A model generated the notes under the pieces. That model had not been told where the DNA came from. It saw only the letters and a list, made by a program, of their open reading frames with translations, and did no database searches. A DNA stretch of 62,383 nucleotides, filler included, from Deltaproteobacteria bacterium (GTDB lineage: Bacteria > JAUYMQ01), in assembly GCA_030698575.1 (NCBI GenBank). It is 10 parts of 10 records of this genome, joined end to end, with 100 filler letters (N's around TTAATTAATTAA, not from the genome) between each part and the next. Parts side by side here need not be neighbours in the genome. Positions count along the whole stretch, not along the records: positions 55,121 to 59,067 come from JAUYMQ010000118.1; 9 more parts are not named here. The stretch is one strand, 5' to 3'. Shown here piece after piece: positions 55,121 through 59,167 of the stretch. How positions within the stretch are numbered: the stretch's first letter is position 1; each line of letters starts with the position of its first letter. Both the position numbers and the translations under genes were made by a program.

Positions 55121-55460
55121 CGCGGAATCCGATTTCTGGTCTGGGTTGCTGCTGGGTGACGAGCTGGAAGTATTTCAAGACGCTGCCCCGTCTCTGAAAG
55201 AACAGGGCTTGGTCCACGTAGCTTTCTTTCGTGTATTGCGCGGCACCGCCGATCACTGCACCAACCATCTGCTGCTTCAGCTCGCCGTCTGGGATCCGAA
55301 ATTCTGCAGTGTCGAACCCTACACGCTCCAAGTGGTCAAGGGCGCCGTGGTACTCCTGGACTAAGCCTTCCGGCACTCCGTGAAGCGAGTTCAGATTCGC
55401 CAGTGTTTCCTTCAGCGCTGCCAGGCGCGCATAAGCGCGCGTCACTCGGTCGTCGGCCAT
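55121..55460 (-). CDS. Hypothetical protein (element cargo), stop not captured
   Basis: GAAGGAG RBS, ATG 55460; ends ...RPEIGFR at the contig edge. Confidence 0.7.
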
Positions 55461-55544
55461 TTTGAGGTCTCCTTCGTTTTGATGGTTGACGTAGGCTACT
55501 ATGCGTAGGTCCCCTTCGGCAACTTGTACCCAGGTAGGGGCCGC

Positions 55545-56102
55545 ATGAGCAACGACCACAGGATTCGAAACAGCGTCATCGCCGGCCTGATCGTGGCCGC
55601 CGCCGTTGCGATCGCGAAACTCTTCTCAGGGGTCTTCCCTGTCATCATCGCCGCGATCGGCTCCGCCTTGGCCGGGATCTTCAGGCACCTCACCTCATCG
55701 GTGGATGTTCCCCGAGGGATCGTCTACATCGCTTCGCTGGCTGGAGGCGTTTGGGCCATTCGTCGCATGAGACGTGCGCACAAGGCGGCGGCAGCCGTGG
55801 CGAAACCGGCCCAACCGGATTGGCCCGAATACACGCAGGACCGTTTCCTTGGTGTGGTCTGGAGGTGGCAGTACGACCGGGATGGCCTCCCCGTGTATCT
55901 CGCTGCGTTCTGCCCCTTCTGTGACATGCAGCTCAGATCAAGTGAGTATCCTGGGTTCAGGTTTCCGGCGGACCTCTGCTGCGATCGATGCGACAAGCGC
56001 TGGAGCGGCAAGAAGAGTTGGGAGGCAACGCAGATCTACGTGACCCTTGAGGTGCAGCGCAATCTCCGCTCCCTGGCCTGGCGTCACCGACTCACACCCT
56101 AG
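55545..56102 (+). CDS. Hypothetical membrane protein with C4 zinc ribbon (element cargo)
   Basis: N-terminal hydrophobic segments; CPFC...CDRC. Confidence 0.7.
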   Translation: MSNDHRIRNSVIAGLIVAAAVAIAKLFSGVFPVIIAAIGSALAGIFRHLTSSVDVPRGIVYIASLAGGVWAIRRMRRAHKAAAAVAKPAQPDWPEYTQDRFLGVVWRWQYDRDGLPVYLAAFCPFCDMQLRSSEYPGFRFPADLCCDRCDKRWSGKKSWEATQIYVTLEVQRNLRSLAWRHRLTP

Positions 56103-56585
56103 TCCGGGCTTCGCGGCCGCGAGCGCATCGACCAGCACCCCGATCCCGAGCAGCTTTCCGGCCCGCCTTAGCCGCTTCATGATCGCCTCGTCCTCGGGGG
56201 ACGGGCCTGTGTCGCCCGTCATGTGGAGCACCGCATAACGCCGGGGGGGGTGGTTGTGGCCGCACATGATCGCGGCCGAGTTCGCGAGGATAGCCGCCTG
56301 ACGACCTCACGGGGATGGCCGATCGCGGCGTTCAGGCTGTCGATCGAGATCGTCTCCGCCGCCCGGACACGGCTGCGCGTATCCAGATGCAGCACTACGA
56401 AATGCTCCCGGTCCGTGTTCCCGATCAGACGGGCCAGAAGGCTGCCGGCATCCTCCGGGCGGGAGATTCTCACTCCAGGCTCCGCGACCTGTGCGGTGAG
56501 TTCGGTGGCCAGAAGCGGACCTGACGTGCCCGCCCGCCGGATTGCGAGCATAGGTCTTTGGAGCGTGCCGCCGTCTCTTCGACAC
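56099..56585 (-). pseudogene. radC: RadC/JAB-domain pseudogene
   Basis: DREHFVVLHLD...HPREV, frameshift near 56299, then AAIMCGHNHP-[PRRYAVLHM]-TGDTGPSPED...AGKLLGI; the LDH motif has degenerated. Confidence 0.8.
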
Positions 56586-56847
56586 TAGGGCCTCCCCGCT
56601 GTCGCCGTTCCGGATGCGGAACGCGCGAAGGGAAGCCTGAGCTGAGCGTCATCGGGAGGGGGTTGGTCCTGCACGGCTGGCCACGTCTGTCTTGCGGGGA
56701 ATCCGCCAACTAGAAAATCGTCAGGACCGGAGATCCGAGCAGCCGCGTCCTGCCGTGGAGCGGGGGCGCCCGGGCTTGGGGCCGCGTACTCAAAGTCGCG
56801 GGACCGGCCTTCTGAGAGCCTGCGTTTTGGGCTGACCGATCGGACGA

Positions 56848-59010
56848 TCAATCGAGTAGGTCCCGAACCGCGCCTGGCGGTGCAGGCGCCCCTCCCTCCC
56901 ACTCCGAGACGTCCTGCTGCCGAACCCCAATTATCCGCGCCAGATCCTTCTGCCGTAGTCCGTGCCGCTCGCGATAGGCCCGGATCCGGTCGCCCAAACT
57001 TCGGAGGTTCATCTTATCCCCGACCGTCCCGGTGCCCGTGAGCTCCCGGATTAGGCCCCGGTACCGAATCCCGGGCCGGCTCCGGCTGTGCTCCCACTTC
57101 CAGATTGTCGTCGGGTCCACCGACCACTTTCTGGCCAGCTCTTCGATGGAGATCCCGGCGGCGGTGCGTGCGCGCCTGAGCTCGTCTCCGAGCGTCGTGA
57201 CTCCGACCACGTCGCGAGGGTCATAGCCGAGGAAGTCGAGCACCCCAGGCAGGAGTCGGAGCGCCGGTGCCGTGGTTCCTCCCTCCCAATTGGATATGGT
57301 GGGCGGCCGGACACGGAGGCGCTTCGCCAGCTGCCGCTGGGTGAGTCCCTGCTCCAACCGCTTCCGGCGCAGGTGGTCGCCCACATGCCGAAGATCCGTA
57401 GACCATGTAGTGCCAGTGCGTTGCGACGATCGGAGGGTCAGATCACAAAATGGCAACGCAGGGGTGAAGTTGCGTTGCCATTTTGTGACGTCTTCAGGAG
57501 CGGAAGGAGGGAGATAGCTGAGATGGAGCTCGACGTTATTGTCCCCGATGACGATCCGGTCGACGATGGTTTCGACGATCTCGCGCCGCTCGTCCGGGGT
57601 GAGGGATGGCCAGCGGGAGTAGAGGTCGCGGGCCTCGGTCAGGATCTCGTCGCGGTTCAGATACTGGATCTTTCGGAAGTCGACCTCGCTCTGGAGCACG
57701 GGAAGTTCATTCTCGATCTGCTGGAGGCGCTCTTCCAGGGGACGGTACTGCCGGCCGAAGCCCTGGACCGATATCTCGTCGTTGACGTAGGCATGGTACA
57801 CGCGGTCCATTTCCCGGGCGACGCGGGCGCGCTCGGTCGTGAGCGACTGGAGCGCGGCTTCCTTCGCTCCGATCTCCTCGTCGGCCTGCGTCAGATGGCG
57901 GGCGATCTCCTCGGGGGAGAAGACAAAGCCCTTGAGCTGCTCACCGAAGACTGCGTCGAGATCCGTGATCGCGATCTTGTTGTGGCATGTCTTACAGCCG
58001 TACTTCGTCGTCTTCGACAGCACGTACATGGTCTGGCCGCAGGTGCAGGTGACGAGGCCGGCGAAGAGGTGGACCGCTTTCTTCGCCGGGCGCTGGCCAT
58101 TCTGTCGGCGCTCGCCCAAGAGCGCGTTGGCGGTGGTCCAGATCTCCTCTGAGACGATGGCTTCGACCGGGGTGAGCACCCAATCACTCGGGGGCTTGAG
58201 CGTCCAGTGCTTCTTCTCGCCGAGCGAGCGGGTGTAGTTGGCCCGTCGGACGCCTTTCGCGGTGGGGTCACGGAGGAGGCGGTCCACGGTGGTGTCGGTG
58301 AACTTGGAGCCGTTCCGGGTGCGATAGCCCTTCTCGTTGAGCAGCCGCGCGACGGCTTTCTTCCGCTTGTGCTCCAAGAAGAGCTCGTACATGAGCCGCC
58401 GGACCGGGGCTTCTTGGGGGTCGGGGACGAGCTCGCGGTTCTCCCAGCGGTACCCGAAGGGGGCCGCACCCCCGAGCGGCTTGCCGAGCTTGGCACGGAT
58501 CGGGACCGAGGCGGCGACCCGCTCGGCGATCTCCTCCCGCTCCCACTGGGCCATGGCGGCGACGACCGTGAAGAAGAGGCGTCCTGCCGGGGTGGACGTG
58601 TCGATCGCCTCGGAGAGGGAGATCAGGTCGGCGTCATGTTCCCGGAAGATGTCGGCGAACTCGAGGAGCTCCCGCGTGTTGCGGGCCAGCCGAGCGAGCT
58701 TCGAGAAGATGAGTCCGGAGATGTGTCCGAGCCGGACATGTTCGAGCATCCGGTCGGTCTCGGGATTGCCCATGACGGTTTTTCCGGACACTGCTTCGAG
58801 GTGGTAGACCTCGCGGACCCGCCAGCCCTTAGCTTCGGCGTACATGTGGGCCCGCTTCTCGTGGTGCTCCGGGCTTTCGCCCTTGGCCTGGTCCTCGGTG
58901 GAGACGCGAATCCAGATGCCGACCTGCTTGGCGGCGGGGTCGATGTGACCGTTGTTTTTTGGCACGGCGGCAACCCTCTTCACGGCCTCGGAGTGAGAAG
59001 ATGAGCGCAC
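56848..59010 (-). CDS. Large serine recombinase fused to three XRE-family HTH domains
   Basis: RVSTEDQ catalytic Ser, LARLARN, PFGY, recombinase domain, CTCG...CKTC zinc ribbon and coiled coil. Then three repeats of GD.LR..R...G..Q..LA...V...I..WE. Confidence 0.9.
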   Translation of the reverse strand: MRSSSHSEAVKRVAAVPKNNGHIDPAAKQVGIWIRVSTEDQAKGESPEHHEKRAHMYAEAKGWRVREVYHLEAVSGKTVMGNPETDRMLEHVRLGHISGLIFSKLARLARNTRELLEFADIFREHDADLISLSEAIDTSTPAGRLFFTVVAAMAQWEREEIAERVAASVPIRAKLGKPLGGAAPFGYRWENRELVPDPQEAPVRRLMYELFLEHKRKKAVARLLNEKGYRTRNGSKFTDTTVDRLLRDPTAKGVRRANYTRSLGEKKHWTLKPPSDWVLTPVEAIVSEEIWTTANALLGERRQNGQRPAKKAVHLFAGLVTCTCGQTMYVLSKTTKYGCKTCHNKIAITDLDAVFGEQLKGFVFSPEEIARHLTQADEEIGAKEAALQSLTTERARVAREMDRVYHAYVNDEISVQGFGRQYRPLEERLQQIENELPVLQSEVDFRKIQYLNRDEILTEARDLYSRWPSLTPDERREIVETIVDRIVIGDNNVELHLSYLPPSAPEDVTKWQRNFTPALPFCDLTLRSSQRTGTTWSTDLRHVGDHLRRKRLEQGLTQRQLAKRLRVRPPTISNWEGGTTAPALRLLPGVLDFLGYDPRDVVGVTTLGDELRRARTAAGISIEELARKWSVDPTTIWKWEHSRSRPGIRYRGLIRELTGTGTVGDKMNLRSLGDRIRAYRERHGLRQKDLARIIGVRQQDVSEWEGGAPAPPGAVRDLLD
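57443..57488. repeat. Perfect 18-bp inverted repeat with 10-bp spacer (attP-like site) inside the recombinase ORF
   Basis: TCACAAAATGGCAACGCA-GGGGTGAAGT-TGCGTTGCCATTTTGTGA. Confidence 0.85.
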
Positions 59011-59167
59011 TCTATCCGGTGCGCGGTCATGGTTCCAGGGAAAGAGGCTGGAAGCGAACCGTATTACNNNNNNNNNNNNNNNNNNNNNNNNNNNNNNNNN
59101 NNNNNNNNNNNTTAATTAATTAANNNNNNNNNNNNNNNNNNNNNNNNNNNNNNNNNNNNNNNNNNNN

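Follow-up and report, generated by a model that had tools for sequence, protein, structure and literature searches.

The 46-bp palindrome at positions 57443–57488 of a 62,383-base stretch of DNA from Deltaproteobacteria bacterium (assembly GCA_030698575.1; the whole stretch is hereafter called the window) was studied as the recombination site of a putative mobile element. It lies inside an open reading frame (ORF) of 720 aa (56848–59010, minus strand, stop codon at 56848–56850), in which a large serine recombinase (LSR) is fused in frame to three XRE-type helix-turn-helix (HTH) domains. With a probability that we place at roughly 0.85, the palindrome is the attachment site (attP) of an integrative mobile element whose LSR targets comM (yifB, a gene for a Mg-chelatase-like ATPase); since the site is in frame within the linker of a single ORF, integration splits the recombinase-HTH ORF, and the long form is encoded when the element is free and the short form when it is integrated. 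The arms represent the half-sites P and P′, and comM holds attB; strands are exchanged at the central TG/CA, whose TG belongs to the Cys codon of the comM motif ..AAMNP/C.CG.. (slash, point of exchange).

The window is composed of 10 separate contigs, joined at nine places (3041–59167) by 44 N, TTAATTAATTAA and another 44 N; these spacers separate contigs and genes across a spacer are thus not genomic neighbours. The palindrome is carried by the contig of 3,947 bases located at 55121–59067.

The attachment site and its junctions with comM

The stretch 57443–57488 reads TCACAAAATGGCAACGCAGGGGTGAAGTTGCGTTGCCATTTTGTGA and consists of two 18-nt arms, 100% complementary and 10 nt apart. With up to 3 mismatches allowed, the 18-mer was found at two places only in the window, which are the two arms themselves, and in 0 of 100 shuffled sequences were two matches obtained. 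Once the artificial spacers of N and TTAATTAATTAA were set aside, this was the longest perfect short-loop inverted repeat of the window. Its minus-strand reading is VTKWQRNFTPALPFCD, residues 508–523 of the 720-aa ORF, and its G+C content is 48% against 65% for the ORF. A preliminary description of this DNA, made from the sequence only, had reported a perfect 18-bp inverted repeat with a 10-bp spacer, in frame between recombinase and HTH domains and richer in A+T than the coding DNA around it; the ORF, the Pfam matches, the complementarity of the arms and the G+C content bore out all these details.

The P arm (57471–57488, minus strand) is on the recombinase side, encodes TKWQR and stays with the recombinase gene in attR; its core, GGCAACGCA, stands just before the crossover in the attR of 38 genome loci. 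The crossover dinucleotide TG (57465–57466; CA in the sense of the recombinase) corresponds to the first two bases of the comM Cys codon. The P′ arm (57443–57460, minus strand), on the HTH side, encodes ALPFC and contains a TTG codon at 57454–57456; in attL loci its core, TGCGTTGCC, comes immediately after the 3′ half of comM. A 9-mer of this core recurs at 56024–56032, where no wider likeness to the site was seen, and the recurrence is probably due to chance. As in the attP sites of LSRs, which measure about 40–50 bp and show dyad symmetry around a non-palindromic 2-base core common to attB, the site has 46 bp and a TG/CA core that is shared with comM; the palindrome is also kept in fused relatives, in which lineage-specific changes fall on both arms.

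The integration of the window's own element was examined in the assembled contigs (depth about 5) of four sequencing runs, X1 to X4. Record 6 of X1, the probable source run, covers 57465–59067 and continues with letters that read as ..RFALAAAMNP, joining the P-arm side to comM, while record 4 of the same run covers 55785–57466 and goes on into sequence read as (C)PCGFLGHPV. Within the window, the only bases common to both records are the TG at 57465–57466, and their flanks together restore one comM motif; records 6 and 4 are attR and attL in comM. The element of the window is thus flanked by two comM halves that rejoin in frame, as was also found for its relatives. In X2, which belongs to the same study, record 13 spans 57413–57626 with no differences, so that an intact attP is present there, and both states exist in the populations of this study. 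Runs X3 and X4 hold only small, diverged pieces and were uninformative for this element. No comM sequence was found elsewhere in the window. The crossover at the central TG/CA, the attL and attR junctions at 57465/57466 and an attB target had all been anticipated; both junctions were recovered on contigs, which leave the window sequence on either side at exactly that point, and the target is comM.

The same junctions were sought in 80 related loci, found in genomes of many bacterial phyla and in two archaeal metagenome-assembled genomes (MAGs); the DNA after the recombinase was read and classified by tblastn. In 39 of the 80 loci the comM 5′ part, ending exactly at ..AMNP, lies in antisense directly behind the recombinase gene, and the tail of the short form is the antisense reading of comM, in agreement with the expectation that recombinases ending just past ..QRN with a target-derived tail would be found. 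The comM 3′ part follows the recombinase in sense in five loci, where the element is reversed in comM, and seven loci are fused. Two more (L028 and L058) run into an antisense tRNA-like motif instead of comM, indicating a different target; we take this motif to be like a T arm on the general features of tRNAs. One locus (L080) has a comM 5′ fragment ending at another residue, and the remaining 26 have a contig end too close or other flanks. Among the reversed loci (L043, L073, L023, L063 and L075), L043 and L073 have a recombinase ORF that continues in frame into the C-terminal part of ComM (..CRCGHLGD..SGP.LDRID..).

Both ends of one integrated island could be read in genome G001. There the comM 5′ half (Pfam ChlI and Mg_chelatase, profile positions 1–158 of 207) adjoins the recombinase, and the 3′ half (PF13335), about 35 kb from it, adjoins an HTH module that starts at ..PALPFCH and is preceded by the P′ core. 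The two comM flanks read together give an uninterrupted ..GAMNPCFCG.., and the two ends of the element give a palindrome like that of the window. A second HTH module was detected inside the 35-kb island (L007:329–841), with a diverged P′ arm, not beside comM and near genes for an Mrr-type nuclease and a transposase.

The opposite end of the islands was surveyed with the HTH module (a 4-row alignment) in metagenomes, where 80 loci were obtained. In 41 of them an antisense comM 3′ part, starting with its first residue, ends at most 12 nt from the HTH module, five have the comM junction motif only, three are fused, two start at a contig end and one is without usable hit. The other 28 loci (22 distinct) have other sequence upstream of the HTH module, two of which (L210 and L241) look fused by eye. 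Homologous HTH modules also adjoin the comM 3′ half in L081, and the same arrangement was seen in 9 of 10 further genomes with a comM-integrated recombinase. Stand-alone HTH genes starting from ..PALPFC, with one palindrome arm at the other end of the island, had been predicted as well, and the 41 metagenome loci and nine genomes provide them. At the junction, the dinucleotide CA was found in 37 of 38 attR and in 40 of 40 distinct attL. Integrated relatives show a direct geometry: recombinase and HTH module, one at each end of the island, share a strand.

The recombinase in attR keeps its catalytic, recombinase, zinc-ribbon and coiled-coil parts and gains about 8–10 codons and a stop from antisense comM. 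The three-HTH module comes to lie in attL, behind the second half of comM and directed into the island, at a distance of about 35 kb in the one relative measured. A restart of the HTH module at the TTG inside the P′ arm after integration is plausible, judging from the codons available: TTG is at codon +2 of the module in 38 of 41 attL loci and is the only start candidate listed near the beginning of the module in 21 of the 41.

Several other arrangements were observed among the relatives. Four HTH modules from the metagenome scan (L218, L227, L234 and L248) are preceded by a recurring sequence, ..RFMLIATGDSH in sense, which is not comM and may belong to another AAA-type target gene. Four of the 10 comM-integrated genomes (G008, G016, G014 and G015) hold two units composed of comM 3′ half, attL and HTH module (L249/L254, L257/L262, L258/L263 and L261/L265, respectively); the paired units are 6.6–61 kb apart and 82–94% identical, the likeness extending from about 30 nt beyond the comM open frame to the end of the HTH module. 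They look like stacked islands, and the outer one is without a recombinase of this family within 1.5 kb. Finally, L009 and L011 encode recombinases 66–67% identical to that of the window in MAGs labelled Thermoplasmatales and Thermococci, and L009 has a comM-antisense junction; their archaeal placement reflects either a very wide host spread or a binning error.

The recombinase-HTH fusion and its two forms

In the 720-aa ORF, Pfam recorded Resolvase (PF00239) at residues 32–174 (3.1e-31) and Recombinase (PF07508) at residues 198–301 (1.6e-20), as well as HTH_3 (1.7e-26) in three stretches, all of them C-terminal to the residues encoded by the palindrome. PF13408 was below threshold in this protein and was recorded for some relatives. 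The recombinase part (residues 1–505; 57496–59010, minus strand) is predicted from alignments and model to comprise a catalytic domain, a recombinase domain, a four-Cys zinc ribbon and a long coiled coil. Residues S37, C322, C324, C339 and C342 are invariant in alignments of 24 and 41 rows, and the RVSTEDQ motif that contains S37 is invariant in the former and at least 90% conserved in the latter. This part is 82% identical to the comM-integrated recombinases P0003–P0005. The HTH module (residues 523–720; 56851–57444, minus strand) comprises, according to Pfam and the model, three XRE-type HTH domains at about 543–594, 607–658 and 672–719.

The AlphaFold model, built on 41 fused relatives (mean pLDDT 80), shows the catalytic domain, the recombinase domain, the zinc ribbon (strands 320–347), the coiled coil (helices 348–469) and the three HTH domains. 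Its sole long internal stretch with pLDDT below 50 is residues 501–518, overlapping the palindrome-encoded residues 508–523. By Foldseek, the model matched the full-length SPbeta, PhiC31 and Bxb1 integrases (E down to 8e-18, over 514–612 alignment columns). A match to the catalytic domain of the TP901-1 integrase (3bvp, 1.8e-18) was also recorded. By sequence and model, the protein appears to be a complete LSR, with a catalytic domain bearing the serine nucleophile, a recombinase domain, a zinc ribbon and an inserted coiled coil. A complex prediction between the zinc-ribbon/coiled-coil part (305–500) and the HTH module (523–720) gave a score of 0.00, which weighs neither way.

A search of a protein collection gave 120 relatives at 53–82% identity among the matches listed, in two forms. 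About half of them are long (630–710 aa) and continue as ..QRN..PALPFCH..LK..KP..YP..L.TLGDH.RK.RLDL.. into the HTH domains, and the rest are short (about 500–525 aa) and stop a few residues past ..QRN, their tails reading for instance RGSWRRPA or TDSSRPPA. The two forms part ways inside the 10-nt spacer of the palindrome. An attP inside the integrase ORF explains why gene callers have split this family into recombinases of about 507 aa with odd tails and recombinase-HTH proteins of 640–720 aa.

One recombinase was found both fused and split: over 475 aa, the fused P0002 (663 aa) shows 98.5% identity to P0027 (538 aa), which has a comM tail. In a FastTree tree of 121 recombinase bodies, restricted to the first 490 residues, the state changes between fused and comM-tailed at least 13 times, eight of them forced by strongly supported branches. 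The window protein falls, with 98% support, in a group of four together with three comM-tailed proteins.

Conservation of the site was evaluated separately from that of the peptide. In 10 fused attP sites the arms matched at 18, 15, 17, 14, 15, 12, 15, 11, 8 and 14 of 18 positions, when about 4.5 are expected by chance. The letters of the outer arms vary by lineage yet change on both arms together, as in L012, L041, L017 and the inner base of L004. Moreover, among 59 long forms selected with a motif filter, the site is translated as ..ALPF.. in 48 and, in a neighbouring frame, as ..RVAFLP.. in 6; the other five fit neither reading, two of them being probably false picks. The second frame was confirmed in DNA for L004, with 17 of 18 arm matches, and the ORF is open across the site in both frames. 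Covarying arms and the reading of one DNA in two frames mean that the site is conserved independently of the peptide; on these comparisons both the DNA site and the open frame look selected, in line with the selection at the DNA level that had been suggested.

Readings of the site and their weight

If the palindrome acts as described above, a free, newly arrived or excised element could express only the long recombinase-3×HTH protein, which, from the anatomy of the locus, would have to be the integrating enzyme. An integrated element could express only the short recombinase, which on the same anatomical grounds would have to be the one available for excision, and the HTH module would be either silent or restarted at the TTG inside the P′ arm. 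Our best guess, by analogy with the attP-in-gene arrangement of integration-dependent phage immunity, is that this state-dependent change of protein may tune direction or expression. A more specific version is offered tentatively, as one possibility and not the expected outcome: the long form might be locked into attP × attB, while attL × attR might be carried out by the short form, either by itself or together with an HTH protein restarted at the P′-arm TTG; the rewriting of the enzyme by its own reaction would then be the directionality control. Serine integrases are valued as one-way tools, and how their direction is set is a central question. With the attachment site inside the integrase frame, each state of the element encodes a different enzyme, which offers a ready-made pair of long and short isoforms with defined sites, attP here and attB in comM. 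If the rewriting of the enzyme did control direction, a separate directionality factor would be unnecessary in this family, which extends over many bacterial phyla and a few archaeal MAGs.

Several observations weigh against the element as described. The preliminary description had equated an intact site with the excised or unintegrated state; the equation of fused with excised is incomplete, as five of the seven fused genome loci, in which the palindrome is conserved, are on contigs of 75–840 kb (L012, 682 kb; L041, 840 kb; L017, 185 kb; L032, 77 kb; L004, 75 kb). In three of these five genomes comM is apparently intact elsewhere, and in two it was not found. The fused gene of L004 is followed by a terminator-like hairpin and ribosomal-protein genes, and L012:9986–12517 is an ORF of 843 aa formed by the recombinase, the palindrome, a partial HTH and then a BpsA_C domain (polyamine synthase C-terminal). 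The state labels are clustered on the tree, with 13 changes observed against a mean of 33 for shuffled labels, so lineage also matters, and one group of 49 rows is mostly fused (36 fused and only 5 comM-tailed). Since a fused protein served as query, fused forms are also over-represented in this sample. The junction evidence consists of contigs at depth about 5 and not of raw reads; X1 is possibly the source of the window itself and therefore not independent, and X2 comes from the same study. The 3,947-base contig has no terminal overlap, and its circularity was not shown. The neighbours of the fused gene in L012 include two further genes for serine recombinases, as well as methylases and an AAA_13 ATPase.

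Part of these data would also suit a site that is attP but whose in-frame fusion carries no regulatory meaning, the HTH gene being simply the first one after attP and the read-through a tolerated by-product. The lineages in the mostly fused group of the tree may not switch, and the fused gene is stable in large contigs. Nevertheless, the ORF is continuous over the site in 54 of the 59 long forms, at 52–73% identity and in two reading frames of the same DNA; no stop or obvious separate start between the two parts was seen in any fused locus inspected, and the peptide after the site (..LK..KP..YP..L.TLGDH.RK.RLDL) is conserved. An incidental fusion is for these reasons considered rather unlikely.

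XRE-type HTH proteins bind palindromes, and the dyad symmetry and the A+T-richer composition would also be expected of an operator for the HTH domains or of a hairpin attenuating transcription or translation between the two halves. That the palindrome serves in this manner instead of as a recombination site is very improbable, given that both flanks are swapped for the two comM halves exactly at the centre of the dyad, in the source study and in dozens of relatives, and that no T-run follows the hairpin; alongside its role as attP, the site may in addition act as an operator. An assembly chimera of attL and attR ends, aided by the inverted repeat, might be thought of at a depth of about 5, more so when no X1 contig crosses the site free of differences (record 5 covers 57446–57479 with 2 differences). 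Such an artefact is equally hard to sustain: with nothing but the 2-base core in common, the attL and attR ends offer an assembler no overlap to join, X2 record 13 crosses the site without differences, and many assemblies independent of each other contain fused ORFs that carry the palindrome. A site for DNA inversion, or a dispersed repeat (REP- or MITE-like) landed between two genes, has only the palindromic shape in its favour and is the least credible, as the window holds no other copy, no second palindrome was found in the 3.0–4.2 kb stretches scanned around the fused genes L003, L004, L017 and L041 (within about 2–4 kb in these four relatives), and integrated relatives have the direct geometry described above.

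Comparison with known elements and the RadC-like gene

ComM is needed for natural transformation, and the present family adds to the evidence that, in hosts very distant from each other, mobile elements insert preferentially into its gene. According to Durrant et al. 2022 (PMC10083194), the Mg-chelatase/ATP-dependent-protease gene (comM/yifB) is the target of 12.4% of the site-specific LSRs predicted. The comM-targeting elements of that study have the same target gene and are likewise LSR-driven; the passages of the paper that deal with them contain no mention of an attP within the recombinase ORF or of a C-terminal HTH module, and its supplements may list such cases. Elements with LSRs targeting comM are thus already known and common. 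No paper on an attP inside an LSR-HTH fusion ORF was found in literature searches, which did not cover supplementary tables.

Attachment sites within genes are described for tyrosine integrases. In integration-dependent immunity of the BPs type, attP is inside the repressor gene and the repressor loses a degradation tag upon integration (Broussard 2013, described in PMC8092301). The element studied here is similar in having attP inside a gene for an HTH-type protein and different proteins encoded by the free and integrated forms; as far as that description goes, it differs in that its enzyme is a serine recombinase and the split parts the integrase from the HTH module, the likeness being in logic only. 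The ‘suicidal’ tyrosine integrases of the SSV type, from archaeal viruses and plasmids, have the att site in their own integrase gene, which is fragmented on integration (PMC8371274). The recombination site inside the gene of the integrase itself is a shared trait, whereas in the window the enzyme is a serine recombinase, its whole LSR core survives and only the appended module is removed, a difference drawn from what that source states of the SSV type. In the engineered PhiC31 Int-gp3, a fusion of integrase and recombination directionality factor (RDF), the partner on the C-terminus of the LSR alters the pair of sites recombined (PMC6511857; PDB titles 9dxd and 9teh). A small partner covalently placed on the LSR C-terminus is found here too; unlike those constructs, which as presented in these sources are man-made and carry a known directionality factor, the fusion of the window is natural and is made or broken by the reaction itself.

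A similar arrangement of genes is that of the sr1WO prophages of phage WO from Wolbachia, in which an LSR integrates into the magnesium chelatase gene, with the recombinase at one end of the prophage and HTH_XRE and DUF2466/RadC at the other (bioRxiv 10.1101/2021.11.04.467296). In the window, too, recombinase, HTH domains and a RadC-like gene follow one another across attP; a fused recombinase-HTH ORF is not described in the passages of that preprint on sr1WO, and no phage structural genes were seen here. The element was not assigned to phage WO, as its best identity to any record of the phage collection was below 30% and its hosts are diverse environmental MAGs. Phage and plasmid collections yielded only distant LSRs, below 30% identity, and in IMG/VR 3 of 79 loci exceeded 50% identity.

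The RadC-like JAB gene (55938–56551, minus strand) lies 3′ of the HTH module and is probably cargo of the element. Two overlapping ORFs of one strand, 56219–56551 and 55938–56267, make up this gene, which is split by a frameshift or by a sequencing error at depth about 5. Pfam RadC was recorded at profile positions 1–59 (4.7e-10) and 73–103 (1.3e-4).

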